From a virus: a DNA stretch of 64,000 bases. The notes below the pieces were generated by a model. The model saw only the letters and a list, made by a program, of their open reading frames with translations, was not told where the DNA came from and did not search any database. The stretch is from the IMG/VR virus record IMGVR_UViG_3300028859_000011, positions 1-64,000 of that record. One strand, 5' to 3'. Positions 30,879-56,877 of the stretch are shown piece after piece. A program made the translations under genes and the position numbers. Each line of letters starts with the position of its first letter. The stretch's first letter is position 1.

Positions 30879-31228
30879 CGACAGGACAAACATTTAATTT
30901 AGGATTAGTATCTACTTCATATTCTAATTTTGATATATTAAATATAAAACAGAAAAATGGAAATGAAATATTAACTATAACACAGGACGGAGAAATTTAT
31001 TATAATTTTAAAGATGAAATGGTTAAAGTGGAATGTCCAAAAGATATAGTAGATGCGTTTGAATTTTCAATATTAAATTATACTGGTAAATCAATAGATG
31101 ATGTACTTATGAAAAAATGTTTTAACTATATTTCAAGTGATGAAATTTCCAATGAGCATTTATTAAAGTTTGAATCTGCTATTAGAAAAGCAAAATTAAA
31201 AAAATTAAATGATGATAAAAATAGATAG
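30875..31228 (+). CDS. Hypothetical protein with Family B tag
   Basis: Ends IRKAKLKKLNDDKNR. Confidence 0.65.
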   Translation: MTTGQTFNLGLVSTSYSNFDILNIKQKNGNEILTITQDGEIYYNFKDEMVKVECPKDIVDAFEFSILNYTGKSIDDVLMKKCFNYISSDEISNEHLLKFESAIRKAKLKKLNDDKNR

Positions 31229-31796
31229 AAGTTTTATAAATCATGCTATTTTAAAATGGACACCTGTTATTAATTCATTAAATATTGGTACTCATTTAAT
31301 AGAACCAATTTCAATTTTTGCTGAAGTTCATTCATATAAAAATAATAATAATTTATATAGTTCAAATTATAATATTTTTACTGATTATATTTTACCTATG
31401 TCAATTAAAATATTATCTAAATTGAATTTATCAAACGTTAAATTAATTATAGATACAGAAAATAATTATACATTTGATGATTATTATATAAAATTTAATT
31501 TAACAACAGAGCAAGAGCAAGAACTTAATATGCAAGTGCAAGTAGTAATAAATCCTATAGATATGGCATTTTCAGCATTATCTAATGAAATTATAATTAA
31601 TATAAATGATAAAATTAAAAACGAAAAATTTAATATACTTATAATCAATGATAAAATTAAAAACGAAAAATTTAATATACTTATAATCAATGATAATTTT
31701 ATTAATAAAATTGAAAGATTTCCGACATATATATTATTAACTTATAATTTTATATTAACTGGCATAAAACAAGAGAGATTAAATAAATTAAAATAA
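31209..31796 (+). CDS. Hypothetical protein; N-terminus resembles a T4-type major capsid prodomain start
   Basis: AILKWTPVINSL resembles the LxxKWxPxL start of gp23-like proteins; ends with a loose tag KQERLNKLK. Confidence 0.4.
   Translation: MMIKIDRSFINHAILKWTPVINSLNIGTHLIEPISIFAEVHSYKNNNNLYSSNYNIFTDYILPMSIKILSKLNLSNVKLIIDTENNYTFDDYYIKFNLTTEQEQELNMQVQVVINPIDMAFSALSNEIIININDKIKNEKFNILIINDKIKNEKFNILIINDNFINKIERFPTYILLTYNFILTGIKQERLNKLK
31605..31696. repeat. Exact 42 bp tandem duplication
   Basis: AATGATAAAATTAAAAACGAAAAATTTAATATACTTATAATC twice plus a partial third start; NDKIKNEKFNILII twice. Confidence 0.9.
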
Positions 31797-32011
31797 ATAA
31801 ATAGTAATATATAAAATAATTTAATTAATATATAGTCATATAAAATATTACCTACCTATATATTATTCTTATATTCAATAATTTAAAAATATTATTGAAA
31901 TAATATCATAAAAAGCTTTGTGATTAGAAAAAAATGTTGTACTTTTGTATTATCAATTACAACAATCAATTAAACTTTATAATAAAATTGATATATTAAT
32001 ATAAATAATTT

Positions 32012-32305
32012 ATGGAAAAGACAAAAACAAAGACATTAGAAGAAATTTTAGAAGAAAATGATATATCTACAAATACTGAAGAAGAAAGTAAATTAATTTT
32101 ATGGAATGATGATGTTAATTCTTTTGAATGGGTAGAAAGTTGTTTAATGCTTTATTTAAAATTTACATTTGAAAAAGCTCAAGCATCAGCATACAATGTA
32201 CATCTTAAAGGAAAAGATATTATTAAGACAGGATCGAAAGATGAGTTGGAGCCATATAAAAAATTATTAGAAGAACGAGGATTAAGCCTTACAATAGAAA
32301 AATAA
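32012..32305 (+). CDS. clpS: ClpS N-degron adaptor
   Basis: LILWNDDVNSFEWV...VHLKGKDIIKTG...RGLSLTIE. Confidence 0.9.
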   Translation: MEKTKTKTLEEILEENDISTNTEEESKLILWNDDVNSFEWVESCLMLYLKFTFEKAQASAYNVHLKGKDIIKTGSKDELEPYKKLLEERGLSLTIEK

Positions 32306-32328
32306 TAGAAAAAATAATAGAAAGTGAT

Positions 32329-32598
32329 ATGAAAAAATTAGCAATAAATTATATTTTATATATTTATAAAAATTTCATATATAATAATAAGGATAATGAT
32401 ATTTATAAAAAATGGGCAACTTCATTTATGATTATATTAGAATATACATATGATTTATATATTTGGATATTATCAATTATATTTTTACCTTTTTTATTAA
32501 TTTTAATGATAAATGATAAAAAAATAAAATCTAAAAAATTTCAATTAATGAAAATGTTTATTAACTATACTAAAAATAACAACAATAATAAAAATTAA
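32329..32598 (+). CDS. Small membrane protein
   Basis: Hydrophobic stretch LYIWILSIIFLPFLLILMI; lies between clpS and clpC. Confidence 0.55.
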   Translation: MKKLAINYILYIYKNFIYNNKDNDIYKKWATSFMIILEYTYDLYIWILSIIFLPFLLILMINDKKIKSKKFQLMKMFINYTKNNNNNKN

Positions 32599-32606
32599 AA
32601 AAGCCT

Positions 32607-35141
32607 ATGAATTACTCAAAAGAAGTAGAAGAAGTTATCAAATTAAGCAAGGAAATTGCTATTAATATTCGTTCTAAGTCTATTAAACCTGAACATTTAT
32701 TTTTGGCAATGATTGATGACGATCATTCTGAAACATCTGAAATATTGAGGGATTTAAATCTCAATATTGGCGCAATTAAGCAAACAATTCGTGAGTTGTC
32801 TACATCTGAACAACCTGGAATAAATACACTTAGAAAGAATGCATCAATTCCAATTGACTCATCAACTGAAAAAATTCTTACAGATTCTGCTATTTTAGCT
32901 AAAAAAATGGGAACAGATGAAGTTAGTGTAGAACATGTTTTATGTGCTATATTAGAAAATAAAAATAATTTAGTATCAGAATTATTTAGTAAATCTCCTG
33001 ATATTTTAAGGAGTCTAATGATGATTTTGAAAAATGAGGATCATCTTGATGAATACAATAATGAAATTAATGAACGAGATATAGAAGATTATCAAGATGA
33101 GTCTAACATTAAAGATGATACTAAAAATAAATCAAAAACTAAATTGATTGATCAGTTTGGTACTAATCTTACCAATCTTGCAAAAGAAGGTAAATTAGAT
33201 CCAGTAGTTGGACGTGCAGATGAAATTAAAAGAATTTCGCAGATATTATCCAGACGTAAGAAAAATAATCCTGTATTAGTAGGTGAACCAGGTGTAGGTA
33301 AATCTGCGATTGTTGAAGGATTAGCTCAATTAATTGTAGATGGACTTGTTCCTGAAAATTTACAAAATAAAAAGGTTATAACTCTTGATATGGGGTCTTT
33401 GGTAGCAGGAACTAAATATCGTGGTGAATTTGAACAAAGATTAAGAGGTATTGTCAAAGAAATGGAAGAAAATACTGATATTATTTTATTCATTGATGAA
33501 ATTCATACTATTATTGGAGCAGGTTCTGCAGCAGGATCACTTGATGCTTCTAATATGTTGAAACCAGGATTAGCCAGAGGAACATTTAGATGTATTGGCG
33601 CTACTACTCTTGAAGAATATAGAAAGTATATTGAAAAAGATGCAGCATTAGAACGTAGATTTCAAAAAGTTGTAATTGATGCAACTAGTAAATCTGAAAC
33701 ATTAGAAATTCTTAAGAATATCAAAAAACAATATGAAAATCATCATAAAGTTACATATACTGATGATGCATTAGAAGCATGTGTTAATTTATCTGATAAA
33801 TATATATCAGATAAATTCTTTCCAGACAAAGCAATTGATGTTCTTGATGAAGCTGGAGCTATGGTTCATGTTAATGGAACAAGTGCAATTCCAGATAAAA
33901 TTGTAGAACTCAGTAAAAAAATAAAAATTTCTATTTCTGAAAAACTTGAAAGTATTGCAGCACAGAAATTTGAGAAAGCTGCTGTTCATAGAGACAATGA
34001 AAAACAATGGAAATCTGAACTTGAATCAGAAAGAGAAATATGGAGTCAGGAACATACTGATCATAGAGATGTAGTAACTCAAAAAGAAATAGCTGAAGTT
34101 GTTGCCCTAATGACAAAAATACCTGTAGATAATGTATCCGTTGATGAAAATAACAAGTTAAAATTTATGGCGGATAAAGTAAAAACTGTTGTTATTGGAC
34201 AAGATGATGCTGTTGATAAAATAGTTCAATCAGTTAAAAGGGCAAGAGTTGGTATTACTAATCATAGTAAGCCTGTTGGGTCTTTTGTTTTCTCTGGACC
34301 TACTGGAGTAGGTAAAACATATCTTGCAAAAATTATGGCAAAGGAGTTATTTGGATCAGAAGATGCAATGATTAGAATTGATATGAGTGAATTTATGGAA
34401 AAATTCTCTGTATCTAGATTAGTAGGAGCACCTCCAGGCTATGTTGGATATGAAGAAGGTGGTAAATTAACAGAAGCAGTAAGACGTAAACCATATTCTA
34501 TTATTCTTCTTGATGAAATGGAAAAAGCTCATCCAGATGTTCAAAATATACTTCTTCAAGTATTAGATGATGGTGTATTAACTGATAGTAATGGTCGTAA
34601 AGTAGATTTTAAAAATACTATTATAGTTATGACAACAAATGCAGGTTCAAGAAAATTGAAAGATTTTGGTGCTGGAATTGGATTTGGACTTAATAAAAAC
34701 AGTCAGCAATCTAAAAATGATGTTCTTAAAAAAGAATTAGAAAAAGTATTTAGTCCTGAATTTTTAAATCGTATTGATGAAATTATAAATTTCAATTCTT
34801 TAAGTAAAGAAAATATTTGTGGCATTATTGATGTTGAATGTAAATCTTTGATATCTAATCTTAAAGAAAAAGGATATGATATAATTATATCTCAATCACT
34901 TAAAGATTACTTATTTGAAAATGGTTATGATGAAAATTATGGAGCAAGGCCATTAAAACGAGCAATTCAAAGTAATATCGAAGATAAACTCGCTGATGCT
35001 ATTATTGATCAAGAAATCTCAGTTGGTGATAAAATATCATTAATATATGATAAAGAAAGTTCATCTGTTAAAATTTCAAAATTGTCAACTAAAGAGATTA
35101 AGGCTAGTAATATCTTAACAGAAAATACTACAGTTTCTTAA
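32607..35141 (+). CDS. clpC: ClpC-type AAA+ unfoldase
   Basis: Clp N-domain, GEPGVGKS and GPTGVGKT Walker A motifs, UVR-type M-domain ([11 protein letters not shown]) and ClpP-docking IGF loop (GAGIGFG). Confidence 0.92.
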
Positions 35142-35446
35142 TGATTAAATGGAAAGATTTAAATCTCACTGATAAAATATTCTATGTTATCTTAAATAAA
35201 GATAACATAGATGTTTTACTTAATAATGAGATGAAAATAGAAGAGATTAAAATAATTAGTATTATTAATGATAATAAAAATATATTATTTAATACTGATA
35301 TATTTGGAAACATTGAAATGACATATGATGAATATAATGAAGAAAGTTATGTCACCTCATATTTAAATGATTCTCTTATAATATTTTCAGTCGATCATAA
35401 TGGAATTATAACTGAATTGAAAAAATTATTAAATGATTTAAATTAA
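35141..35446 (+). CDS. Hypothetical protein (paralogue of the split gene at 59491-60295)
   Basis: Starts [14 protein letters not shown]; followed by a terminator. Confidence 0.6.
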   Translation: MIKWKDLNLTDKIFYVILNKDNIDVLLNNEMKIEEIKIISIINDNKNILFNTDIFGNIEMTYDEYNEESYVTSYLNDSLIIFSVDHNGIITELKKLLNDLN

Positions 35447-35459
35447 CAATTTAAATATT

Positions 35460-35486
35460 AAAACCCTCTGATTTTCAGAGGGTTTT
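35460..35486 (+). terminator. Rho-independent terminator
   Basis: AAAACCCTCTGA / TCAGAGGGTTTT followed by Ts. Confidence 0.85.
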
Positions 35487-35550
35487 TTATTTGTAAAATT
35501 GATTACTGTTTTTTTATATATAATATTGTTAAAAAATAAAATTATAAATT

Positions 35551-36657
35551 ATGCCAGAGCAACAATATAAAATACATTTTCAAAGAAAATTTAAAACATA
35601 TGAAAAACATAATGACTTTTATAATAAATTATTAGACTTAGATATACAACATTTATTTGAGGTTTTACACAAATTAAGATTACCAAATGGTTTTTATAAA
35701 GCATCAGTTTCTACTGATTATAGGTACAGTTGGTTAAGAGATAATTTCTTTTGTTCATTTCCAGAATTATGGAACGATACAGAAAAATATATTCAAACAT
35801 ATCAAACATGGTTAGATTATTATAAAAATATAGAAACAAAATATGGAAAATTTTCATCTTTAATTAAAAAGAAAAAAATAGATTTTGATTGGGAATTTCC
35901 TAATCCAAGAATAAATACAGATTTGACAGAAATTCATTCTGGATGGAATCATATTCAAATTGATCAAATAGGATATTTTTTATATGGAATATCAACTGGT
36001 GAAAATAATGGATTGAATATAATTCGTGATAAATCTGATATTGATATTATATCAACAGTAATTAATTTACTAGATGCTATTAATTATCACACAGTACCTG
36101 AATCTGGAGCTTGGGAAGAGGGTAAAGAAGCTCCAAGGGCATCTACAATTGGTGTAATAGTGGCTGGCTTAAAATCAATTAAAATGTGTAATAACATTAA
36201 TATAGAAATTCCTGTTCATCTGATCGAAAATGGTATTAAAACTTTAAATAGTATTTTACCAAATGAAACCCCCACCAGAAAATATGATTTAGCACAATTA
36301 TTTCTTATTTATCCATTTAATTTATTAACTATTGAAATGTCTAAAACAATATTAAAAAATATTGAAGATAATTTATTAGATGATAATGGAGTCTATAGAT
36401 ATCTAGATGATAAATATTATAATCACAATGGAGAAGCAACTTGGTTATTTGGATTAAGTTATTTAGGATTAATATATTGTCAATTAGGAGATAAAGAAAA
36501 AGCAAAATATTTTTATGAAAAAATAGTTGATGAATCCATAGATTATGAAATACCTGAATTGTATTATCACGGTACAAAAACTCCAAATGATAATAATCCA
36601 TTAAGTTGGAGCATAGCAATGACTATTGAATTAGCACATATGCTTAAAACTAATTAG
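35551..36657 (+). CDS. GH15-like six-hairpin glycoside hydrolase
   Basis: YSWLRDN, HIQIDQIG, GAWEE and PLSWSIAM motifs. Confidence 0.7.
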   Translation: MPEQQYKIHFQRKFKTYEKHNDFYNKLLDLDIQHLFEVLHKLRLPNGFYKASVSTDYRYSWLRDNFFCSFPELWNDTEKYIQTYQTWLDYYKNIETKYGKFSSLIKKKKIDFDWEFPNPRINTDLTEIHSGWNHIQIDQIGYFLYGISTGENNGLNIIRDKSDIDIISTVINLLDAINYHTVPESGAWEEGKEAPRASTIGVIVAGLKSIKMCNNINIEIPVHLIENGIKTLNSILPNETPTRKYDLAQLFLIYPFNLLTIEMSKTILKNIEDNLLDDNGVYRYLDDKYYNHNGEATWLFGLSYLGLIYCQLGDKEKAKYFYEKIVDESIDYEIPELYYHGTKTPNDNNPLSWSIAMTIELAHMLKTN

Positions 36658-36761: not shown

Positions 36762-37403
36762 TCAAACAACATTATCCTTATATCTTTCAGGATTTGAGCA
36801 TTCTGGTATGACTCTAATTTTAGGACTTACAGGCATTTTTAATTCTTTTTCTTCAGATTCTTTAATCTTAATTAATCCAAAAATCGCATAATTAATCATA
36901 TCAAAATAATTTGCATCAATTCCTTCTGATATTATAGTTTTACCGTCATTATCTTCAATTTGTTTAGTTCTATATATTTTCATTAAAATTAAATCAGTAT
37001 ATGATTCTATTCTCATTGATCTCCAAGCTTCGCCATAATCATGATTTTTATTTAACATTAATTCTTTAGCTTTCTGGATATATTTATTATATAATTTTAT
37101 TCCTTTATCATAAGATAAATCATCTGAATCAGAGTAGCCAAGTTCTAATTGAATTAATCCAATTATTCCATAATTTACAATCGCTATCAATTCTGAATTA
37201 ATTCCTTCGTCAATTTTTTTCTCTAATTTAATTTCTATACTTCTAATTCTATTAGCTTTTATAAATATCTGATCTGTAACAGATTTTGGCCTTAAAATTC
37301 TCCAAGAAGAACCATAATCTTTCATTTTTTTAGTGTAAATATTTAAGCAATCATTTATTATTTGATCAAATTCCTCAATAGTTTTATTTATTTTATTCGT
37401 CAT
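36762..37403 (-). CDS. DUF1599 (nucleotide-modification-associated) protein with tandem domains
   Basis: KKMKDYGSSWRILR...IFIKANRIR and KNHDYGEAWRSMR...KIYRTKQIE, the Bacteroidota two-domain form. Confidence 0.75.
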   Translation of the reverse strand: MTNKINKTIEEFDQIINDCLNIYTKKMKDYGSSWRILRPKSVTDQIFIKANRIRSIEIKLEKKIDEGINSELIAIVNYGIIGLIQLELGYSDSDDLSYDKGIKLYNKYIQKAKELMLNKNHDYGEAWRSMRIESYTDLILMKIYRTKQIEDNDGKTIISEGIDANYFDMINYAIFGLIKIKESEEKELKMPVSPKIRVIPECSNPERYKDNVV

Positions 37404-37974
37404 TTTTCAATATATTTTTTAATTTATCTGATCTTTTTTCTTTTACTGATAATTTATTATTTTCATATAATATTTTTTCGAATTTAAAATTGACATTTAA
37501 TTTGCTTAAATTACAATATCCATTTTTAAATTTAAAATTATTCTCAATATTTGTAAATTGAAATTTTGTATAACATATTGTCATCAATTTTGAAATTTTT
37601 ATTTTAACTGACATTTTTATTTCATCTTCTATTAATTCCATTAATTTTTCATATGGTTGTATTCTATTGCCAGATAATTCACAATTAAATATAAAAGTTT
37701 TATCATTAATTTCACATAAAGAATCAGATAATTTAGAATCGTTATCAAATTCAAAAATGACAGAATAATTTAAACATTCTAAGAAATTTAATGATTCTTT
37801 ATTTTCTACTCCATAAAAATAATTTGGATTAATACAACTACCATATAATTCATTTATAGTAGTATTATTATAATTTCCAGTAGTAATATTTGATGATATA
37901 GATGTTGCTAATGTTGATGTTGATGCTAAAGTGTTAGATAAATTTAAATTTGCTAAGTTATTAAATATAGACAT
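37393..37974 (-). CDS. Family B tagged protein, possibly a degenerate tail-tube fold
   Basis: Ser/Thr-rich N-terminus, beta-rich core ending LNVNFKFEKI, then KRSDKLKNIL; similar layout to 50747-51214. Confidence 0.45.
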   Translation of the reverse strand: MSIFNNLANLNLSNTLASTSTLATSISSNITTGNYNNTTINELYGSCINPNYFYGVENKESLNFLECLNYSVIFEFDNDSKLSDSLCEINDKTFIFNCELSGNRIQPYEKLMELIEDEIKMSVKIKISKLMTICYTKFQFTNIENNFKFKNGYCNLSKLNVNFKFEKILYENNKLSVKEKRSDKLKNILKNDE

Positions 37975-38053
37975 ATGATTTTTATTATTTTTATTATTTT
38001 TATATTACAAAGTTTGTTTTTTTATATATAGAAAAAACTATAAAACTACAAAT

Positions 38054-39943
38054 ATGCCAAGCTCTAGTAAAATGATGATGATTAATACAAATGTCTTAAT
38101 GGAATGGACATTTGATAGTGAAAATAATATAACTGAAAATTACAAAGTTATAACTAATTTGAATGAAAATAAAAAAAGAAGTTTTCTTTCTACTACAAAT
38201 AATAATTCCATAAATAATAATTTAGTTTTATTGGATACTGTTCTAAAAAAATATACTCCTATTGATGTAGTAAAATATAATTTTTTACAATATCAAGATT
38301 ATAATACAGCACCAATACCATATGATACTGTAAAATTATATTTACCAACGAATTATAATTTCGTAATGAATGAATATGTTGGATTATATGTTAAAATTTA
38401 TACATATGATTATTATAATGAAAATGTATATGAATTATCTAATATATTTTTTGATTCTACAGTTAATACAACATCAGGATTAACTCAATTATCTATACCA
38501 TTTTTATATAATGAACAAGAATGGGGTAAATATTATGAATTTCAAATTCCATCTATTGATTATATATCTAATCAAAGAATAATATCATTAACAGAAAATG
38601 TAGTATTAAATAATACAATCAATGATAATTTTACGATAGGAGTAGGATTAAGTCAAACATCTCCAATATTTGTTGAATTTCAATATTTAACTTCAAAAGA
38701 AATTATACTTGGTACAACATATTATTATTCATCAGAGTCTTACCGTACATCATTATCTAAAAGTGCTGATTATAATACATTAGCAGTCAATATATCAGAA
38801 TCAACAGAAGGAGATTTCTTTGAAATAAACGGTACATATGGAAATTCAACTCAAAATTTGGATAATTTCATAAGAGAAATGGAGAATAAAGGACGTAGAA
38901 TGAGAATTGAGTACGATATTTATCTACTTGAAGAGAATATACAGACAAATATGCAAACCGTTGTTGTAACAGGAAATGGCGCAAATGATGATTTTACAAA
39001 AACTATATTATATAGACCTATTTTAACATTTTCAAACACAACAGCAGCAATAAACGTTGTAATGAGAGTTATTGATTTAGTGGATATGAGTACAATAGAA
39101 AGAACATCAACTCTTGGGTTAACTACTAATATACAAAAATATGGTAAAAAATTAATTAGTTTAAATATACAAAATTTAAATAAACTTAAAATTTATAATG
39201 CGAAACCAGATGAAATTATTTTGGGCTCAGATTATTTATCAGGAAATATAACTACAGAAATTGTAAAAGTAAATTCTCCTCAATTGATAGAAGTTGGTAA
39301 ATTAATAGTAAATAGTTCATCTAATAGTTCATCTACCGCATTAACTAATAATGATTATAAAACTATGGGATTATTAAATATTGTAATTACTCCATTTGAT
39401 AATATCATACAATTTAGATTGGCATCTCTTCAATCAACAAATTCTACTACTAATCAATTGGTTATATATGATTTATCTACAATATTGAATAATGCAGAAT
39501 TAGTATTAGTATTTAAATCTGATTCAGAAACAATAGAAAAATCTATATATCAAGAAGCTACAAATGATTATATAAACGGAATTGTTAATTTTAAAATTTT
39601 AGAAAATGATTTACCTGTATTAAACTCAATTTACAATAAAGGATTCACTAATTTTTATTTAACATTAGTGTCAAATAATCAGTCATCAAATAGTACAACT
39701 CAAGTTATTGGACTTGATAAAGTACGAACATTATTATATTCTGGTACATTTACATTATTTGAAAATGTCACATTTGTTGATGATAGTACAACATATATTT
39801 CAGACTCAAGTAGTTCTGTTCCTATATCATCAGGTAGTGCATCTACTAATACAACAACTACAACAGCATCAATATGGCCAATGGCAGGAAGAACAGTTAT
39901 TATTTATACCAAATATAAAAATACATCATCAACATCAAATTAA
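38054..39943 (+). CDS. Probable virion structural protein
   Basis: 629 aa, Asn/Thr-rich beta composition; TTTTATATATAG motif upstream. Confidence 0.55.
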   Translation: MPSSSKMMMINTNVLMEWTFDSENNITENYKVITNLNENKKRSFLSTTNNNSINNNLVLLDTVLKKYTPIDVVKYNFLQYQDYNTAPIPYDTVKLYLPTNYNFVMNEYVGLYVKIYTYDYYNENVYELSNIFFDSTVNTTSGLTQLSIPFLYNEQEWGKYYEFQIPSIDYISNQRIISLTENVVLNNTINDNFTIGVGLSQTSPIFVEFQYLTSKEIILGTTYYYSSESYRTSLSKSADYNTLAVNISESTEGDFFEINGTYGNSTQNLDNFIREMENKGRRMRIEYDIYLLEENIQTNMQTVVVTGNGANDDFTKTILYRPILTFSNTTAAINVVMRVIDLVDMSTIERTSTLGLTTNIQKYGKKLISLNIQNLNKLKIYNAKPDEIILGSDYLSGNITTEIVKVNSPQLIEVGKLIVNSSSNSSSTALTNNDYKTMGLLNIVITPFDNIIQFRLASLQSTNSTTNQLVIYDLSTILNNAELVLVFKSDSETIEKSIYQEATNDYINGIVNFKILENDLPVLNSIYNKGFTNFYLTLVSNNQSSNSTTQVIGLDKVRTLLYSGTFTLFENVTFVDDSTTYISDSSSSVPISSGSASTNTTTTTASIWPMAGRTVIIYTKYKNTSSTSN

Positions 39944-39953
39944 AATAATTAAA

Positions 39954-41192
39954 ATGACTACTACAACTACTACAATATCAAATACTAAAAATGATTTACT
40001 TAACGCATTAAATATATCATCAGGTGAAACTTTAAGTTATAATTCATCAATTGAGAATATTATAAATACTCAAGGCGGAACTGTTTTATATTCGTACGAT
40101 AATATAATTATAGCATCTGAAATTACAGATTCATTTTATAATGAATTGATTAAAAATCCAAACATAGAGTATATAGATTCACTACCTTTAAAAAAATATG
40201 GTGATGTTAATTATAATTTAATTAACCAAGTAGTGATTAATAATAGTAATACATCGAATTTAAGTTCAACTTCAGGTTCAAATTCAGGAACAACTGTTGC
40301 TTTCGTAACAGGAATAAATGTGACAGGATATACAAATGATATTACAAATTCTATAAATTTGTTAAATACTCTTACTACGACACTTCAAGATGGAATATCA
40401 GGTAAAACTAGTTTATCATCAAATATAAATATATCACCTACCATAACAAATGATATTTTTGCATTAAGTGCAGAAACCAATAATACATTCAATTATCTTA
40501 TTAATGCAACTGGTACTGTACCAATTAAATATGAGATTATAACGCCAAGTAACTATATTGGAACAATAGGACTCAATTTAAATAATATAAGTGGAATCAC
40601 ATCAAAAACTGGAACATATAATTTTACATATAGTGCAATAAATTATTACGGTTCTGCATCAAAAGATTTAGTTTTGACTGTTATTGAATATGTTAAAATA
40701 ACCAATACAAATCTTATTATTAATAGTAATTTTGGTACAAATATTACATATCAAATATTATCAACTGGAAATCCAAATTCATATTATTCAACATCTTTAC
40801 CATCTGGATTAACTATGAACAATTCAACTGGAGTAATTAGTGGAATTTGTGTTATAACTGGAAGTACTAATGTTAATATAACTGCTTCTGGAATAACAGG
40901 AATGGATTCTAAAATATTAACAATTAATGTAGGATATTATCCAATCATTACTAGTATTGGTACTATTTCAGGTAAGACATATTCAGCGTTTAATTATACT
41001 ATAACATCAACTGATAGTGGTGCTACATATAAAATTGTAGGTAACTTACCTAGTGGATTAAATTTTAATAATAATATAATAAGTGGATTACCAAATAATC
41101 CTGGAATAGTAAACGTATCAATAACAGCAAGTAATGCGTTTGGATATTCCACTAAAAATTTATCAATTATTATATCAAATATGAATATATAA
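39954..41192 (+). CDS. Putative-Ig (He_PIG-type) repeat protein with N-terminal I9-like domain
   Basis: Start reassigned to MTTTTTTIS; repeats such as SLPSGLTMNNSTGVISG and NLPSGLNFNNNIISGLP. Confidence 0.7.
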   Translation: MTTTTTTISNTKNDLLNALNISSGETLSYNSSIENIINTQGGTVLYSYDNIIIASEITDSFYNELIKNPNIEYIDSLPLKKYGDVNYNLINQVVINNSNTSNLSSTSGSNSGTTVAFVTGINVTGYTNDITNSINLLNTLTTTLQDGISGKTSLSSNINISPTITNDIFALSAETNNTFNYLINATGTVPIKYEIITPSNYIGTIGLNLNNISGITSKTGTYNFTYSAINYYGSASKDLVLTVIEYVKITNTNLIINSNFGTNITYQILSTGNPNSYYSTSLPSGLTMNNSTGVISGICVITGSTNVNITASGITGMDSKILTINVGYYPIITSIGTISGKTYSAFNYTITSTDSGATYKIVGNLPSGLNFNNNIISGLPNNPGIVNVSITASNAFGYSTKNLSIIISNMNI

Positions 41193-41206
41193 AAATAAAA
41201 TAAAAA

Positions 41207-41455
41207 ATGGCTACATCAACTCAAAATTCATTATTTCAAGGATTAACATATAATGATGATATAACAAATGAAATTATATCAAGTGGAGGAACTATAGTTT
41301 TTACTAGAGATAACGTAATAATGGCATCAGAAATATCAGAAGCTGAATATAGATCATTATTAAATAATCAATATATATCTAAAATAGAAGTATTACCATT
41401 AAAAAGATATGGAAATCAAGGTATTACGACTACATCTATAACAACAACTCAATAA
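41207..41455 (+). CDS. Stand-alone paralogue of the 39954 N-terminal domain
   Basis: GGTIVFTRDNVIMASEISE...LPLKRYGN versus GGTVLYSYDNIIIASEITD...LPLKKYGD. Confidence 0.75.
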   Translation: MATSTQNSLFQGLTYNDDITNEIISSGGTIVFTRDNVIMASEISEAEYRSLLNNQYISKIEVLPLKRYGNQGITTTSITTTQ

Positions 41456-41471
41456 AAAAATAATTATTTAA

Positions 41472-41654
41472 ATTAACTATTTAAAAACATTTGAAAAATA
41501 TGATAATTCTTATATTTATGATATATTAACTGAAAGATTTGCAAATTATATTAAAAATGTTTTAAAATTTGAAGAAGAAACTCCAAACTATAGTAATAAT
41601 TTTTATAAAATAAAAAGTAATAAATTAAAATATGAGAATAAGTTCACAAAATAA
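41472..41654 (+). pseudogene. Family A-type ORF with ATT in place of ATG
   Basis: ATT AAC TAT TTA AAA ACA TTT GAA (xNYLKTFE), open for 60 codons; not in the ORF track. Confidence 0.45.
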
Positions 41655-42279
41655 TCAATTTTTATTCCAGCTTCCAACCGACTTTATATCAGATGAAGTT
41701 AATGAAAGAATGAAAAATTATTTATATAAAAATTGGATACCTTATCTTACCCCAATGGATTATTTAAATAGTTCTATAAAAGAATGTGTATTTCCAAGTA
41801 TTACGTATGAAGGATCAGAGCAAATAATTAAATATGGTAAAAAAATTGAATATAAGCCAGCTACAAATATTTATGATACATATAATAATACATTAGATAT
41901 AACATTTAGGAGTGTAGATTCTCATTCTAATTATTTTATGATGCAGCAAATTTTCAATGAATATTATAATAATACAAGAAAATATTCATTAACTAATATT
42001 AATTTATTTATTTTAGATAAAGATGGAGATTTTTTATATTCAATTGTATTTAGAACAGCATTACTTAAGTCATTATCAGAAGTTAGACTTATGTATCAAT
42101 CAATTGATGTATCAGAACAAACTTTTACTGTAACGTTTAAATTTAATTTTATGGATGTATATTGGAAATTAACAGATAATCCAGATTATAAAGAAGATAA
42201 TATATTTTATTCTAAAACTTGGGATCATACTAATGAAATTTTACCCATGAAAAGATCACAAAATAATTATAATTTATAA
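41632..42279 (+). CDS. T4 gp19/gp54-like tail tube or tube-initiator protein
   Basis: IKECVFPSI...TLDITFRSVD...ILDKDG...LKSLSEVRL...TFTVTFKFN pattern of the tube family. Confidence 0.6.
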   Translation: MRISSQNNQFLFQLPTDFISDEVNERMKNYLYKNWIPYLTPMDYLNSSIKECVFPSITYEGSEQIIKYGKKIEYKPATNIYDTYNNTLDITFRSVDSHSNYFMMQQIFNEYYNNTRKYSLTNINLFILDKDGDFLYSIVFRTALLKSLSEVRLMYQSIDVSEQTFTVTFKFNFMDVYWKLTDNPDYKEDNIFYSKTWDHTNEILPMKRSQNNYNL

Positions 42280-49722: not shown

Positions 49723-50358
49723 TTAATTTTTTATCAGTTTTTTAATATTATCTAATTTATTTATCGAAAAAATCCATCCAGCTTTTTTACCACCAGTTTT
49801 AGGATCAGTTAAAAATTTATTATATCTACAACCTAATGATAATAATTCATCTTTAATTTTTTTTGTTCCAATACCAAAAAGCGCATATGCTTTATCTGAA
49901 TATTTAACTAACTCTATATCATCATTTTCTTTTTGATCAAATGTAGATATTGATTTTATATGCTTTAATTTTGGATTTTCTTTTTTTGGCTCTTCAACTT
50001 TTGGTTCTTCAATAATATCAGGTTTATATAACATAAATACTTCAGATAATAGCATTTGATTGCCTTCTTCATCTTCCCAATGTCTAGAAAAATTATGCTG
50101 AGATATTTTATATTTTTTCAATAATGAATTTACCAAAACAGTATCTATTTTTGTATTTAAATTTCCAATTTTAATAAACTCTAAATCTTTTTTCCATTCA
50201 CCTTTACCTAATCCAGATTTTGATATAAAACTATTCATTTTAAGATATAAATCATCATTGTTTATATCTAATAATATCTTAGCTTCAACAGAATTATAAT
50301 CGTAATCCCAAGAGTAATAAGATTTATTTTTAGCTAATAATTTAAAATTTTCATTCAT
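49723..50358 (-). CDS. Hypothetical protein with C-terminal YSxKA...LG.RYN...GWIF domain
   Basis: TTTTATATATAAC upstream; the C-terminal motif is one I recognise from phage/Bacteroidota hypothetical proteins. Confidence 0.6.
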   Translation of the reverse strand: MNENFKLLAKNKSYYSWDYDYNSVEAKILLDINNDDLYLKMNSFISKSGLGKGEWKKDLEFIKIGNLNTKIDTVLVNSLLKKYKISQHNFSRHWEDEEGNQMLLSEVFMLYKPDIIEEPKVEEPKKENPKLKHIKSISTFDQKENDDIELVKYSDKAYALFGIGTKKIKDELLSLGCRYNKFLTDPKTGGKKAGWIFSINKLDNIKKLIKN

Positions 50359-50430
50359 AATATAAACTATATTTTCGTTATATATAAAATAAACTTTTTA
50401 ATTTATTTATATTATAACAAATAAAAATAT

Positions 50431-50733
50431 ATGTTCAAATTAGAAATAGAAACTTGTATGAGTGAACCTCCAATTATTATTGATATAGAATCTTTTAAAG
50501 CATTTGATAGAAAGAAATCCGAAATTCATAAGATGTTAAATAGTTATATATTTGAAATAAATACAAAACAAATCAGAGATGAAATTAAAGAAAATGTATT
50601 AAAAATTTTAAGTATGGATATAATAAATATTAGAAGAGAAAAACTTAAAATATTGGATGAAATTTCTGGAAATAAAAAAATAAAAAAATATTATCATAAT
50701 GATATGATGATCAAGTACAATATTGAAATATAA
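50431..50733 (+). CDS. Hypothetical protein with Family B tag
   Basis: IRREKLKIL; AAACTTTT...TATTAT motif upstream. Confidence 0.6.
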   Translation: MFKLEIETCMSEPPIIIDIESFKAFDRKKSEIHKMLNSYIFEINTKQIRDEIKENVLKILSMDIINIRREKLKILDEISGNKKIKKYYHNDMMIKYNIEI

Positions 50734-50746
50734 AAACAACTGAATA

Positions 50747-51214
50747 ATGATGACATTACCTCATTTTAATTCTATACAAAACTGTTGTTATAATATAGAT
50801 CCTATTTATCAATCATGTTTTGAAGTTAGATTTAATAATAAATTTTTACTAGATAATTGTATATCTATAGAAAATAATATTATTAATTTTAATCTTTATA
50901 TTTATGAAAATGAGTTACAACCATTTAATATTATAAATGATATGATTAATAATAACGAAATTATAAATTATTTAGAAATTATAAATTATAATAACGAAGG
51001 TACAATAAAATATGCAGTATTTTTAGAAAAATTTAAATTTGTAGAATTTGTAGGATTTCTTGATTTTGATTTGGTTAAATATGATAAAAAATATAATATA
51101 AAAAATTTACATGTTAAATTTAAATATGATAAAATGACTGTAATTATAGAAAAAAAATATAATAACTTTATTAGAAAAATTAAAATTAAGTGTTTAAATG
51201 AAAAAGATTCATAA
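50747..51214 (+). CDS. Degenerate tail-tube-like protein with Family B tag
   Basis: LPHFNS...IDPIYQSCFEV start, YNNEG strand and LHVKFKYD end resemble gp19-type tubes; ends IRKIKIKCL. Confidence 0.5.
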   Translation: MMTLPHFNSIQNCCYNIDPIYQSCFEVRFNNKFLLDNCISIENNIINFNLYIYENELQPFNIINDMINNNEIINYLEIINYNNEGTIKYAVFLEKFKFVEFVGFLDFDLVKYDKKYNIKNLHVKFKYDKMTVIIEKKYNNFIRKIKIKCLNEKDS

Positions 51215-51235
51215 AATATGAATCTTTTTCATTTT

Positions 51236-51622: not shown

Positions 51623-51630
51623 AATATTAT

Positions 51631-51670: not shown

Positions 51671-51673
51671 AAT

Positions 51674-51736: not shown

Positions 51737-51740
51737 ATAT

Positions 51741-51767: not shown

Positions 51768-52138
51768 GGTTCGTCAAATATAACATTCCAATTATTTAAT
51801 TTATGCCAACCACTAGGCATTAATATTTCTAATTCATTTGATAATAAATTATCAAATGTAACATATTCTTTTACTTTACCGTTTTTTACTTTGTCAGAAA
51901 TTTTAAATTTATCATTTAATTTGGTTCTTAAAATAACCATTTTAGATTCTCCTCCTTTATATTTAGCATAATATTTAGCATAATTTATATCATTAGTAAA
52001 AGATATTGATGACTTTTCATCACCTGTATTATTAGTTTTCATATATCCATCATTTTGTATATGTAATGACTGCCCTCTACCTGTACCATGATAAATATAA
52101 TTATCATCATTATCAAATTTATTAAAAGTTGTAATCAT
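51761..52138 (-). CDS. ADP-ribosyltransferase-fold-like protein with Family A-like leader
   Basis: MITTFNKFD; YIYHGT ... ISFTNDINYAKYYA. Confidence 0.55.
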   Translation of the reverse strand: MITTFNKFDNDDNYIYHGTGRGQSLHIQNDGYMKTNNTGDEKSSISFTNDINYAKYYAKYKGGESKMVILRTKLNDKFKISDKVKNGKVKEYVTFDNLLSNELEILMPSGWHKLNNWNVIFDEPK

Positions 52139-52162
52139 ATTTTAAATTATTTTAAATTATTT

Positions 52163-52468
52163 TTAATCATATTTATCTATCAAAGGTTTAATTAATAAAT
52201 ATGTTAAGTAACATATAAAACTTCCAATAAATCCATATATTGGAATTATTAATAAACTCATAATAGTTAGTTCATGATAATATATCATTAATAAAGTTTT
52301 AATTATAATACCCCAATAGAATCCGCTGCACTGACAGCACTTTAATAACTTACCTAATGATTGATTCATTTCTTGTATTTTATCTCTTATATGCTTAAAT
52401 ATATAAGATTGGGTTGTTATTAATGTTGCTCCAATTGTTGCTAATATAAATAATAAAAAGGTTAACAT
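52163..52468 (-). CDS. DUF1360-like membrane protein
   Basis: TM helices flanking LGKLLKCCQCSGFYWG. Confidence 0.6.
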   Translation of the reverse strand: MLTFLLFILATIGATLITTQSYIFKHIRDKIQEMNQSLGKLLKCCQCSGFYWGIIIKTLLMIYYHELTIMSLLIIPIYGFIGSFICYLTYLLIKPLIDKYD

Positions 52469-53595
52469 TATTCTTTATTTTTTTTATCAAGTTCAGATAT
52501 TATTTCATCTAATGTCATTCCTTTTATATAATAATTATATACATCATATCTTTCATAACCAAATGATGAGTCATAATGTTTATAAAGTTCATTCATTAGT
52601 CTATTATACTTACTAATTTCTTCTAAATTTTTAAACTCACCAACTTCATAATAAATTGATTCAATTACTATTGTTTCTTTTGGATTAAATATCGCATACG
52701 TATTGTGTTTTTTTTCTTTTGCGACATAACCAACAAATCCTAATTTTTCAATTGTATTAGATACAGAATCATTTTCATAATATCTCCAAGTATCATCTAA
52801 TTTTATTTTTTTTGGTTTTTTATTCCATGATTTTTTATATTTAGAAGCATATTCTTTCATCATATTTTCTTTTGCGATGTTATATAATTCTACTCCTTTT
52901 TCATATTGTTCATCTGTTATTTCAATATTTAAATATGTTTTGTGATATTTTTTATCAAGAAATATCCCAGTTAAATGATCAGATATTCTATAAATATCAG
53001 TTCCTTTAAATATACTTTTTATATAATTTCTAAAATCTTCAAAATATTTACGATATTCATATCCAAATTTATTATCTCCGTATGATATTGATTCTGCACC
53101 ATTTAAATAATATGAAAAAGTTTTTTTATCAATTGTATAAACATAATCGTCATCAACATCAACAACTATTAATTTATCATATTTATAATATGGATCATCT
53201 ACGTTATCTCCAATTTTAGCATTTATTATATTATCAACTGGTTCTATAATATCATCTCCTTTTAATAATTCTAAAATATCTTGTTTTTTATAATCCGTAG
53301 GAAAACAAAAATTGCTCATATAACAAGTAATTTTATCTGGTAATGCATCATCTAATTGTTTTAAATGCTCTTCTATATTTGCATCAAATATTTTACCATT
53401 TAATTTACATGTATAAATAACTGGAGATTGATCTAACTCATTATCACTTGATTTTTCACTTGCGTAGTCATATGCAAATTTACTATTATCTGAAAAAAAT
53501 GTTATATTATTTTTAAATTTAGAAAATAAATATGGTGAGCCATGATATAATGTAAAATTTGACATCATTTTTTCAAATGTTTTTAAATATTTCAT
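52468..53595 (-). CDS. Family A leader protein with ADP-ribosyltransferase-like (ART-PolyVal type) motifs
   Basis: MKYLKTFEK; LYHGSPYLFSKF...FFSDNSKFAYDYA; distal GFVGYV...YAIFNP. Confidence 0.6.
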   Translation of the reverse strand: MKYLKTFEKMMSNFTLYHGSPYLFSKFKNNITFFSDNSKFAYDYASEKSSDNELDQSPVIYTCKLNGKIFDANIEEHLKQLDDALPDKITCYMSNFCFPTDYKKQDILELLKGDDIIEPVDNIINAKIGDNVDDPYYKYDKLIVVDVDDDYVYTIDKKTFSYYLNGAESISYGDNKFGYEYRKYFEDFRNYIKSIFKGTDIYRISDHLTGIFLDKKYHKTYLNIEITDEQYEKGVELYNIAKENMMKEYASKYKKSWNKKPKKIKLDDTWRYYENDSVSNTIEKLGFVGYVAKEKKHNTYAIFNPKETIVIESIYYEVGEFKNLEEISKYNRLMNELYKHYDSSFGYERYDVYNYYIKGMTLDEIISELDKKNKE

Positions 53596-53682
53596 AAATT
53601 ATTATTATTTTATTATGTTATATATTAATATATCAAATCTTTTTTATATCTTTGTAATTAGAATAATTAAATAAAAAATTAT

Positions 53683-54189
53683 ATGAAATCATTTGAAACT
53701 ATATTTAACAATTGGATAAGTAGTAAAGTTGAATTTCAACTTAAAATAATAGATAACATTGCATCTGAAACGGGAGTTGATCCTGAAAAATGGTTTATTG
53801 AAAATTTTTTACGTAGGCATATCGGAGATTATACTGAAGATGATTTTTTAAACGTTCTTCTACAAGAATATATAGGTTATTTATCTAATGAATTTGACAA
53901 AATTGTAGGGGTTTATTTAGAAAGTGATAAACATAATATGTATGGAGAACCAATATATGACATATATATAACATTAGAATATGATTTTGATAATAATAAT
54001 ATTTTTATTAATGAAGAGTACGGAGAAAGAGTTGATATTGAAAAAGTCATACAATCAGTATCTCTTAATAATAGATCTGTGTTGATGAAAAATAAATTAT
54101 TTTCATATATCATTAATAAAACAAATTTAAATATTTTTTCTAAAAAAGATATAAGAGCATTAAAATTGAAACAATTAAATGAAATATAA
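53683..54189 (+). CDS. Hypothetical protein with Family B tag
   Basis: TATCTTTG box upstream; ends IRALKLKQLNEI. Confidence 0.65.
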   Translation: MKSFETIFNNWISSKVEFQLKIIDNIASETGVDPEKWFIENFLRRHIGDYTEDDFLNVLLQEYIGYLSNEFDKIVGVYLESDKHNMYGEPIYDIYITLEYDFDNNNIFINEEYGERVDIEKVIQSVSLNNRSVLMKNKLFSYIINKTNLNIFSKKDIRALKLKQLNEI

Positions 54190-54391
54190 AATTAATGATA
54201 TTGTATTGCTTAATAATGATATTAAATTAAAAATAATAGAAATTGGTGAAATTTCATTGTATTATGTAGTAGTATATTTAACAGAATCACGTCGCACTTA
54301 TATTGATTCTGAATATTTAGATTATAATTCATATCTAATAGATATTAAATATTTAAGAAAAGAAAAATTAAATAAATTATATGAAATATAA
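54179..54391 (+). CDS. SH3/KOW-like small protein with Family B tag
   Basis: MKYKINDIV ... LRKEKLNKLYEI. Confidence 0.7.
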   Translation: MKYKINDIVLLNNDIKLKIIEIGEISLYYVVVYLTESRRTYIDSEYLDYNSYLIDIKYLRKEKLNKLYEI

Positions 54392-54617
54392 AGTAGGAGA
54401 TATTGTAGTTGGAAACATTGTAGTTGGAAACATTTTTAAAATCGAAATTATAAGTATTTTGAATAATGAATATGAATATTGTCTAACATGCAGGTCAAAT
54501 AAAAAAATTACGAAATGGTGCACGATATCAATTGATAATTATACTAAATTAGATGATCAATATCTTAGAAAAGAAAAATTAAAGAAATTATATGATACTT
54601 CAGCAGTGGTTAAATAG
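54381..54617 (+). CDS. SH3/KOW-like small protein with Family B tag
   Basis: MKYKVGDIVVGNIVVGN (15 bp duplication) ... LRKEKLKKL. Confidence 0.7.
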   Translation: MKYKVGDIVVGNIVVGNIFKIEIISILNNEYEYCLTCRSNKKITKWCTISIDNYTKLDDQYLRKEKLKKLYDTSAVVK

Positions 54618-55152
54618 TCAAGATTTTTTAGAAAAAGATCAATTTGAAAAAAGAAAAATATTAAAAAGATGCATACTTACAGATAAATTTTGTATAATAG
54701 GTAAAACTGTTATATGCTTTGAAACTGAACGGTATTGTAATGAAAACAATAAAAGATATTATGATCCATCAATTAAAGGATGTAATTTAACTATTGGTAA
54801 ATCATATAATATATTAGATCATAATATTGGTAAAATAAAAGTTTTAAATGATAACAATAAAAAAGTATGGTGCACAATTAAAAGATTTATATATTCAATA
54901 AAATATGAGAGAAGAGATAAATTAAAACAAATTGATAACGAAGAAAATGATATATCAGATAAAAAATTAATTTGTGTTTTATGCGGGCAAGAATGGGGAG
55001 TAGAAAATAAGTTTACAAATACTTGTGAAAATATCGAATGTAATGGTTTCTGTACTTGGGGATATTCTCCTATGAAACCAGAAAGTTTTACAATTGATGA
55101 TAACGGATTTTGGCATTTAAAACCAATTCCGAAAGATTTAAATAATTTATAA
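54592..55152 (+). CDS. SH3-like domain, internal Family B tag and Cys-rich C-terminal domain
   Basis: LTIGKSYNI ... ERRDKLKQI ... CVLCG...CENIECNGFC. Confidence 0.65.
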   Translation: MILQQWLNSQDFLEKDQFEKRKILKRCILTDKFCIIGKTVICFETERYCNENNKRYYDPSIKGCNLTIGKSYNILDHNIGKIKVLNDNNKKVWCTIKRFIYSIKYERRDKLKQIDNEENDISDKKLICVLCGQEWGVENKFTNTCENIECNGFCTWGYSPMKPESFTIDDNGFWHLKPIPKDLNNL

Positions 55153-55162
55153 ATAATATATT

Positions 55163-55552
55163 ATGCTAGATAAAAAATCAACAAGTCTTATTAAAAATTA
55201 TGCTATTAGTACTGGTAAAAAAATAAACGTAAAAAGTGGTAGATGTAGATATAATTTTAGATGCCAAATGAATGCTGTTAATGATGCATTAAGTAGCAAT
55301 CAATCGACATTAGGAATGTGCATATGTATAAATGATGACTCATGTTTTATTCATTTTATTAATATATCTAAAAATAATACATATATTGATAATACTTTAG
55401 GACAATGGTCAATTAAATATAACTATTATTTAGTAAAAATAATTGATAAAAAAGATTTTTTAAATATAAATGATATATTTACTCAATATAGAAAAGAATT
55501 ACATCAAAAATTACCATTATATTTAAGAATGATAAATACAGTAGAATTTTAA
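55163..55552 (+). CDS. Hypothetical protein
   Basis: Clean ORF; CRYNFRCQMNA and HFIN...DNTLG. Confidence 0.6.
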   Translation: MLDKKSTSLIKNYAISTGKKINVKSGRCRYNFRCQMNAVNDALSSNQSTLGMCICINDDSCFIHFINISKNNTYIDNTLGQWSIKYNYYLVKIIDKKDFLNINDIFTQYRKELHQKLPLYLRMINTVEF

Positions 55553-55813
55553 ATGATTATAGATAAAGGATGGGGATATTGGAATTTAAAAAACTCTACA
55601 ATATTTGATGATATAGCATATTATCTATTTGTACAATATTATGTACATGACTACAAAGATTCTCAATTATATATGTCAAATATGGAATATGAGCCACCTA
55701 ATCAAAAATGGTTTTATTTCAGGAAACTTTATTATGAAAAATATTACAATAAAGCAAATATTATATTAAGAAAAGAAAAATTAAATAAAATAAATGAAAC
55801 TATAATAGAATAA
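55553..55813 (+). CDS. Family B tagged protein (paralogue of 42311-42556)
   Basis: WGYWNL...DDIAY...YYNKANIILRKEKLNKI. Confidence 0.65.
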   Translation: MIIDKGWGYWNLKNSTIFDDIAYYLFVQYYVHDYKDSQLYMSNMEYEPPNQKWFYFRKLYYEKYYNKANIILRKEKLNKINETIIE

Positions 55814-55838
55814 GTTAAACAATAAAAATTATAATATT

Positions 55839-56150
55839 ATGATAGTAGTACATAAAAGTGAAAAATACGGAGATTATTACGGAGAATTAGTTGAGTTTGA
55901 TTACACTACATCCATGAATATTCTTGATTGGAGTAGTAGAGATACCGCAATTTTCTGTACACTACTTGTTAATTTTGGAGTATCAGAAATTCTTTTTGAT
56001 ATGGAGTCAAAAAAAGATTATACTTGTACTGTATATATTGAAACAACAGAAAAAACAGACTATAAAAGTCTAATGATGTTAATTTTTTCAAAACATCCAA
56101 GTGAGTTTTCAGAAGAAACTACTAATCATTTTAGATTGTGGTTTGAATAA
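55839..56150 (+). CDS. Hypothetical protein
   Basis: Clean ORF in the plus-strand run. Confidence 0.6.
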   Translation: MIVVHKSEKYGDYYGELVEFDYTTSMNILDWSSRDTAIFCTLLVNFGVSEILFDMESKKDYTCTVYIETTEKTDYKSLMMLIFSKHPSEFSEETTNHFRLWFE

Positions 56151-56182
56151 AAATAAATAAATAAATAAATAAATATAATATT

Positions 56183-56623
56183 ATGTCAAGTGTTACAGAA
56201 AAATTAGAAGAATATTTAGAGTTTTTAAAAACTCCTGAGGGTGAAGAAAGTATTCGTGAGTTCCGAGAAAAATTACAATTAGAAGATGATCAAAATAATA
56301 TTAATATCGAAAGAATTAAAAAAATGTTCAATGATCAAGAAACTTTTGATTCTTTAGTCAATAGAATAATAAGCAAAAATGGAGAAGAATGGAGGGACAA
56401 ATGTTACAAAAATGGTTGTACACCATATCCAACTCAACTATTATACTCATTGTTTGATTTAGCAGAAAAAGAAGGAACTGAAATAACAGAATCTATTGAT
56501 GATTTTACAAGTCATTTTCCGTCTGATATCTGTGAATATAACGGTTGGCAATTTGCTTTGACATATGGTCAAGGTACATGTAGTAGTATATACTACAATA
56601 AAAAATTAATGTATAGAGATTGA
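56183..56623 (+). CDS. Hypothetical protein
   Basis: Clean ORF. Confidence 0.6.
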   Translation: MSSVTEKLEEYLEFLKTPEGEESIREFREKLQLEDDQNNINIERIKKMFNDQETFDSLVNRIISKNGEEWRDKCYKNGCTPYPTQLLYSLFDLAEKEGTEITESIDDFTSHFPSDICEYNGWQFALTYGQGTCSSIYYNKKLMYRD

Positions 56624-56877
56624 ATTCAATTAAAACAGTAAAATCAAGATATAGTATAACTACAATATCATCAAGTTATTATAATACACTTTCATCAAGT
56701 TATAATACAAATGACATTATTTCTGGTTCAACTGGATTATTAGAGCAAGGTTATATATTTGTTCCTTATATAATGTCTACAACAACATCAATTATTACTG
56801 AATCAAGAGAATGGAAGATACAGAGATTAAGAGAAAAACGGATAGAAAAACTTAATAAATTAGGTTGGAATGAATAA
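56620..56877 (+). CDS. Family B tagged peptide carrying a major-capsid-like motif
   Basis: LLEQGYIFVPYI resembles the gp23-family C-terminal [DE]xG[YL][IVF][YF][AC]PY[VI]P motif; ends KRIEKLNKL. Confidence 0.5.
   Translation: MNSIKTVKSRYSITTISSSYYNTLSSSYNTNDIISGSTGLLEQGYIFVPYIMSTTTSIITESREWKIQRLREKRIEKLNKLGWNE

Follow-up and report, generated by a model that had tools for sequence, protein, structure and literature searches.

A predicted tail-tube-fold protein family and two unrelated orphans carrying the same C-terminal tag in an AT-rich huge phage

Four small open reading frames (ORFs) lie scattered over the first 64,000 nucleotides (hereafter the window) of a 125,546-bp virus contig, IMG/VR record IMGVR_UViG_3300028859_000011, and raise the question of whether a phage keeps pieces of virion proteins for use against its host or its competitors. 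In the original prediction, ORFs 31209, 37393, 50747, and 56620 (named here by their first window position) were described as degenerate fragments of capsid and tail-tube proteins ending in a common C-terminal motif, the Family B tag. Our analysis points to a different picture, in which ORFs 37393 and 50747 are probably two tagged, tube-fold paralogs of a new, clade-restricted family and ORFs 31209 and 56620 are two conserved orphans, unrelated to the pair, that also bear the tag. The contig derives from an uncultured huge phage with a GC content of 22% overall (20 to 28% along the contig). Its CheckV completeness of 18% corresponds to a genome of roughly 700 kb.

Homology and predicted fold of the paralogs

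None of the four ORFs is a fragment. Related huge-phage contigs contain a full-length counterpart of each, and the gene order around all four is kept there, so the description as degenerate fragments is wrong. Scans of the four ORFs against Pfam and PHROG returned nothing meaningful. The amino acid strings that had drawn attention to them exist, although not always in the position claimed. In 56620, the string is present at residues 40 to 51; in 31209, it lies at residues 13 to 24 rather than at the beginning of the protein. In 50747, LPHFNS..DPIYQSCFEV spans residues 4 to 27 as described, and LHVKFKYD occupies residues 121 to 128 but does not end the protein, with 27 residues, including the tag, still to follow.

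The beta core of 37393, noted earlier as similar to that of 50747, reflects homology. Alignment of the two families with hhalign gave a probability of 97.7% and an E value of 2.3e-12 over 125 columns including the C-terminal helix, and HMMER agreed in both directions (9.4e-10 and 1e-6). Orthologs of 37393 share 54 to 61% identity with it, apart from one near-duplicate at 99%, and those of 50747 share 57 to 98%. Searched against 1.84 billion cluster representatives (50% identity), the 37393-family profile recovered 39. An alignment of 34 members (23 to 62% identity) shows three regions: a hypervariable Ser/Thr/Asn-rich N terminus, a core of approximately 110 residues with the motifs N-R-I-Q-P-Y-E and V-K-F-K-Y-D, and a C-terminal helix with the motif K-E-K-R-x-D-K-L-x-K-I. 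No paralog arrays were seen for the family, and the surroundings of its distant members contain only unnamed small genes. The family, previously undescribed and absent from Pfam and PHROG, occurs only in a clade of huge phages with very AT-rich genomes. It is also absent from the complete 634-kb genome LR745206, which is, with LR756502 (642 kb), the closest phage-collection record. Both records are uncultured phages that rank among the largest megaphages (PMC9723777), and the DNA match to them is limited to the Clp ATPase gene, at about 70% identity.

AlphaFold2, run on the 50747 alignment, predicted a beta-barrel accompanied by one short helix and, at residues 135 to 151, a C-terminal helix (predicted local distance difference test score [pLDDT], 66; predicted template modeling score [pTM], 0.60). 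When queried against the PDB with Foldseek (E values down to 3e-4; TM-scores, 0.4 to 0.5), this model matched only Hcp, the tubes of the PVC, AFP, and Algoriphagus injection systems, and phage tubes. In an exhaustive VIA-align comparison with 48,161 chains, all of the best 50 matches were tube-family proteins or Hcp fusions, aligned over residues 22 to 140 with Z scores from 9.3 to 5.5. The highest scores were obtained for Hcp1 (9.3 and 9.2), the PVC tube (9.1), and Bacteroides fragilis Hcp5 (8.7); the T4 portal-neck-tail chain 9mkb_AC (175 residues, gp3 as judged by length) scored 8.5, and the T4 baseplate-tube chain 5iv5_R (162 residues, gp19 as judged by length) scored 7.7. Among the BFVD matches listed, all that carry a name are tail tube, gp19, tail completion, tube initiator, or "baseplate wedge" proteins, while about two in five are nameless or uncharacterized. 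Across the best 50 matches in each of the three libraries, almost all belong to the tube family, as does every named one. The predicted fold of 50747 is that of a tube-type beta-barrel of the Hcp/tail-tube superfamily, whose subclass cannot be told because the Hcp and phage-tube Z scores lie within about 1.5 of each other.

The proposed likeness of 50747 and 37393 to gp19 stands at the level of the fold, where three structure libraries agree, and falls at the level of sequence. The predicted barrel resembles the T4-type tube family (gp19 tube, gp3 terminator, and gp48 and gp54 initiators; PF06841), its core measures about 110 to 130 residues, and the strands with F-E-V (N-terminal) and V-K-F-K-Y-D (C-terminal) are placed much as in gp19. 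However, PF06841 gave no match at an E value of ≤1 in the four ORFs, none at ≤10 in the six frames of the contig, and none among the 34 family members. Against a nine-sequence gp19 alignment, hhalign probabilities were 0.04 to 0.8% (0.04% for the 34-sequence 37393-family alignment and 0.8% for alignment A1), and PDB sequence searches with the ORF-family profiles A1, A2, and A3 returned nothing. Since the structure matches tubes and the profiles do not, the gp19-type proposal holds for the fold; in sequence, the family is new. The paralogs, which show no sequence or profile similarity to the T4 tube family, differ from it in that no sheath gene was found next to them, in their extra basic helix at the C terminus, and in evolving faster than their neighbors; one branch also has a low-complexity N terminus. 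They likewise differ from type VI secretion Hcp and from the PVC and AFP tubes in being phage encoded, with no type VI secretion or contractile-injection genes around them. Hcp rings also carry other proteins, which offers one possible model for a tagged ring.

The tube likeness could also be an artifact of a mediocre AlphaFold model built from an AT-rich, beta-rich sequence, in which case the four ORFs would simply be unrelated tagged orphans. The mean pLDDT of 66 with three of five models below 40, TM-scores of just 0.4 to 0.5, and the lack of sequence support from Pfam, PDB sequences, and gp19 profiles are compatible with this explanation. We nevertheless consider it improbable, as the VIA-align hits are uniform over most of the protein, two other structure libraries agree, and the homology of the paralogs is independent of any structural model. 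Two weak leads from the other paralog point the same way: Atlas feature neighbors of 37393, found independently, carry PF06841 or PF23849 (scores of 0.84), and PF16838, matched in 4 of the 34 family members (best E value, 0.003), is the sole Pfam family found in more than two of them.

TABLE 1 Coordinates of the four ORFs, their tags, and adjoining elements in the window
Feature	Position	Strand	Remarks
ORF 31209, conserved orphan, 195 residues	31209-31796	+	Closes the run 30657-30875-31209 that follows an SbcCD-like gene
Perfect 42-bp tandem duplication in ORF 31209	31605-31696	+	2.2 copies; 14 extra residues, absent from all orthologs
TAA stop of ORF 31209	31794-31796	+	GAA in orthologs; last six residues lost, RLNKLKEI to RLNKLK
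DUF1599 gene	36762-37403	-	PF07659, E value 3e-56; overlaps the 3' end of paralog 1 by 11 nt; same layout in relatives
ORF 37393, predicted tube-fold paralog 1, 193 residues	37393-37974	-	Hypervariable Ser/Thr/Asn-rich N terminus (about residues 1-59); conserved beta core (about 60-170); C-terminal tag helix
Tag of paralog 1, RSDKLKNI (R181-I188)	37411-37434	-	R181 and K184 at least 90% conserved across 34 members
TTTATATATA late-type motif	38021-38030	+	33 nt upstream of the 629-residue gene; palindromic core also faces paralog 1
TTTATATATA motif	50379-50388	-	Upstream of gene 49723-50358 (-); plus strand reads GTTATATATA, 52 nt before ORF 50431
Upstream partner of paralog 2, 100 residues	50431-50733	+	Internal tag-like RREKLKIL; ortholog of 80 residues
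ORF 50747, predicted tube-fold paralog 2, 155 residues	50747-51214	+	Disordered N terminus (residues 1-23); beta-barrel core (24-134); C-terminal helix (135-151)
Tag of paralog 2, RKIKIKCL (R143-L150)	51173-51196	+	R143, K144, I145, and K146 invariant in eight orthologs
Terminator-like hairpin	51196-51234	+	18 pairs plus T run; closes the 50431-50747 operon
TATCTTTG, Bacteroidota-type -7 element	53647-53654	+	36 nt upstream of the first gene (53683) of the array of ORF 56620
ORF 56620, conserved orphan, 85 residues	56620-56877	+	Ser/Thr-rich N terminus; invariant core G-S-T-G-x-LEQGYIFVPYIM; tag
Tag of ORF 56620, RIEKLNKL	56839-56862	+

The C-terminal tag and the two orphans

The tag is what connects the pair with the two other ORFs and with much of the contig. 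The motif [RK]-x-x-K-[LI]-x-x-[LI] occurs within the last 28 residues of 42 of the 222 ORFs, about one in five on the contig, and is 56-fold commoner per position there than internally. With membership defined as R-x-x-K-[LIMV]-x-x-[LIM] within approximately 25 residues of the C terminus, the motif is kept in 33 of 34 sequences of the 37393-family alignment, 8 of 8 in the 50747 family, 5 of 7 in the 31209 family, and all 56620 orthologs. The claim that all four ORFs end in the tag, loosely so for 31209, was borne out: it is present in 37393, 50747, and 56620, and in 31209 it is cut by the stop codon but whole in the orthologs. In hhalign, the tags of 50747 and of the 37393 family were placed in register.

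In 37393, the tag region has an omega of 0.16 at a synonymous divergence (dS) of 0.85, which places the constraint on the protein and not on the DNA alone. Here, the tag sits on a protein of known, albeit predicted, fold and has persisted throughout the divergence of the family, which argues for a function at the protein level. The tube-fold proteins would in addition make a tractable bait for the partner of the tag. Where genes adjoin, the DNA beneath the tag may be under a further constraint. A frequent ending of tagged genes is N-E-x-stop with the next ATG lying within the AAT-GAA codons, giving overlaps of 8 to 11 nt (at 54381, 56870, 37403, and other junctions), so the A-rich tag codons double as the translation-initiation region of the downstream gene. 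The phage also encodes a ClpS adaptor (PF02617) and an 844-residue two-ring Clp ATPase (32012-35141, + strand) between ORFs 31209 and 37393; it is conceivable, as speculation, that this Clp system reads the shared tag.

ORF 56620 is Ser/Thr rich and contains LLEQGYIFVPYI at residues 40 to 51. Its orthologs share 68 to 82% identity over all 85 residues, and its TTG start, within a TTGA overlap, is kept in five related contigs. We rejected a fusion with the preceding gene by -1 frameshifting, because the -1 frame is closed by a TAG codon immediately ahead of the TTG. ORF 31209 contains AILKWTPVINSL at residues 13 to 24, and its orthologs are 42 to 93% identical. Its 42-bp duplication and TAA codon are recent changes; the truncation is shared with one relative of 88% identity. 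No family match was found for 31209 in Pfam, PHROG, and PDB sequence searches. A hit to PF05770 was rejected as spurious because it is confined to the copy with the tandem duplication. Structural models of 31209 were poor (AlphaFold2 pLDDT, 31; Atlas pTM, 0.23) and gave no usable match. Alignment of 56620 with the tube-like family is limited to the 10-residue tag, and judged by their sequences, 31209 and 56620 are unrelated to the tube-fold pair, with the tag as the only common element.

The two orphans had been compared with the gp23-type capsid protein. This likeness is one seen by eye, consisting of K-W-x-P-x-I near the N terminus of 31209 and G-Y-I-F-V-P-Y-I in 56620, and it proved no better than chance. 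The gp23 family PF07068 has no match in the six frames of the contig at an E value of ≤10. BLASTP of 56620 against T4 gp23 gave E values of ≥0.44 with the G-Y-I-F-V-P-Y-I string unaligned, and hhalign of the 31209 family against T4 gp23 gave a probability of 0.14%. In addition, the proline of K-W-T-P in 31209 varies among orthologs. The gp23-like strings are, by these comparisons, chance resemblances, a clear negative in that the sequence tests detected no capsid mimicry.

Operons, timing, and evolutionary rates

Two kinds of upstream element bear on when the four genes are expressed. The first, TTTATATATA, lies at most 200 nt upstream of a start codon in 22 of 26 occurrences (in 18 of them at 17 to 44 nt) and precedes the tail-fiber gene, the Family A operons, and the 629-residue gene at 38054. 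The second, TA-n-n-TTTG, is found 27 to 95 nt upstream of many operon-first genes throughout the contig (for example, at 26693, 53647, and 62316). It is of the Bacteroidota -7 type, which we take to be the housekeeping element of that phylum, and therefore indicates a Bacteroidota host.

It had been stated that the four ORFs lack the late motif, and their early expression had been proposed. The exact TTTATATATA is indeed absent from their own strand. However, 37393 and the 50431-50747 operon start 52 to 57 nt from a palindromic TATATATA core that matches 9 of the 10 late-motif positions on their own strand, an arrangement shared with the relatives. The statement that the paralogs lack the late motif is therefore unsafe. 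TA-n-n-TTTG elements such as TATCTTTG stand upstream of the SbcCD-like gene and of the small-gene array from 53683. Early expression finds indirect support for 56620, which is presumably driven by the host polymerase since its array lies behind the element at 53647, but not for the other three ORFs.

Both paralogs lie, as had been stated, outside any recognizable tail module. Owing to the 11-nt overlap, paralog 1 and the DUF1599 gene form one operon, which diverges from a TTTATATATA-driven operon encoding a 629-residue Ser/Thr-rich protein, a He_PIG Ig-repeat protein, and a 215-residue protein. One paralog could conceivably be the major tail tube protein and the other a tube initiator or terminator; the helix would then be a lineage-specific embellishment with no bearing on the rest of the tagged set. 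In favor of this, tube proteins, tail-completion proteins, and tube initiators are all among the structural matches, paralog 1 adjoins the TTTATATATA-driven operon with its putative virion genes, and structural genes are scattered in jumbo phages. We regard this assignment as unlikely. There is no sheath gene in the 125-kb contig or in a 235-kb relative, paralog 1 shares its operon with a nucleotide-modification-associated DUF1599 gene, and the helix motif is exactly that of about 40 unrelated small proteins. Moreover, the paralogs are 56 to 61% identical to those of the relative, versus 81 to 87% for the adjoining putative virion genes.

Rates were estimated by the NG86 method between the window and one relative (loci L008 and L010); at 22% GC, they are rough and serve for comparison only. 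The four ORFs show amino acid identities of 55 to 69% and omega values of 0.40 to 0.65, against 72 to 91% and 0.08 to 0.26 for sixteen neighbors, which include the Clp ATPase, GH15, DUF1599, S1, NusG, and TK genes and the 629- and 215-residue genes of the late-type operon. The four ORFs therefore change about three times faster than their neighbors, and other tagged genes are fast as well (omega, 0.40 to 0.60). Within the paralogs, the core, like the helix, is under purifying selection (core omega, 0.22 in 37393 and 0.33 in 50747), while the low-complexity N termini drift freely (omega of about 1.4 in 37393). The fast evolution of the four ORFs fits an arms-race role and equally fits weak constraint.

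Possible roles of the tagged tube-fold pair

The reading that we favor as probable joins these observations into one architecture. ORFs 37393 and 50747 would each combine a tail-tube beta-barrel of the Hcp/gp19 type with a C-terminal helix that is conserved, basic, and amphipathic and bears R-x-x-K-[LI]-x-x-[LI]; the 37393 branch adds a freely evolving Ser/Thr/Asn-rich N-terminal extension. The paralogs may form Hcp-like rings, and the helix could dock them to the same partner as the approximately 40 other tagged small proteins. The tail-tube/Hcp fold would thereby gain a family with an unusual order of parts, namely, low-complexity N terminus, tube barrel, and basic helix.

Several points weigh against this reading. 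The AlphaFold2 prediction for 50747 is of moderate confidence, with two of five models above a pLDDT of 60 and the others below 40, and the fold of 37393 is assigned by homology to 50747. At the sequence level, the family has no link to PF06841 or to the nine-sequence gp19 alignment. The whole-gene omega of the paralogs (0.40 to 0.41, at 56 to 61% identity versus 79 to 91% for neighbors) is high for tail components. PF06841, PF07068, and the sheath family PF17482 have no match in the contig or in the fragments of five relatives, so far as sheaths are concerned in 18 to 33% of each genome for the contig itself and two of these relatives; the phage's own sheath, tube, and capsid genes were not found in the covered 18% of its genome or in the relatives' fragments. 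Finally, 31209 and 56620 could formally still adopt a capsid-like fold.

For the tube-fold pair, the role that we consider best placed, at somewhat less than an even chance, is an accessory one in the tail or its assembly, comparable to that of tube initiators or terminators. Action inside the cell, outside the virion, appears rather doubtful, and the idea of a decoy or poison makes up a minor and improbable part of it; some other role altogether accounts for the rest.

The decoy idea, in the form originally proposed, holds that early mimics, namely the tagged tube-fold pair and both orphans, saturate tube- or capsid-sensing defenses or poison the assembly of co-infecting phages. It draws on the predicted tube fold of 50747, on the position of both paralogs away from tail genes, on their roughly threefold-faster evolution, and on a tag that is common among small genes in an operon behind a host-type promoter. 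In addition, it is established that DSR2 and Avs16 are triggered by tail tube proteins (PMC10981675, PMC12803255). However, a tube mimic is at least as likely to set off such sensors as to saturate them, and a faithful one should activate rather than silence them. The known phage-encoded inhibitor of DSR2, DSAD1, is a separate protein, and the abstracts consulted do not present it as a copy of a tube; nor did the literature searched yield a description of any tube-mimic decoy. The two orphans lack any capsid similarity, and the motif context leaves the timing of both paralogs ambiguous. The tube-fold family is also retained, with its gene order, throughout a diverged clade in which identity falls to 23%, where antidefense genes would be expected to be patchy. 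Taken as a whole, the early-mimic proposal seems very unlikely.

A narrower version drops the orphans and casts the tagged paralogs as repurposed intracellular tube copies that interfere with DSR2- or Avs16-like sensing or with the tail assembly of rivals. The C-terminal helix, as on dozens of small early proteins, would bring the copies to their site of action. We hold this version, too, to be unlikely; if true, it would represent the first case of a phage using a structural-protein mimic as a countermeasure.

Some features of the surrounding genes deserve mention. The 215-residue gene at the end of the late-type operon 38054-42279 (41632-42279, + strand) may itself be a genuine gp19-family tail protein: hhalign against the gp19 alignment gave a weak match (24.5%; E value, 8e-4) with 99 collinear columns. 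This gene has no Pfam match and no tag, and its omega is 0.13. In the same operon, a 412-residue protein (39954-41192, + strand) carries the He_PIG Ig-like repeats (PF05345; E value, 3e-13), and its N-terminal domain of approximately 70 residues recurs in the next ORF, of 82 residues (41207-41455, + strand). Relatives have an additional 129-residue gene, absent from this genome, between the 82- and 215-residue genes. Near 56620, one relative carries a SIR2-domain gene (PF02146; L008, 15130-15807) where the window has a 103-residue ORF at about 55800-56200, and the content of the tagged small-gene array differs between close relatives.

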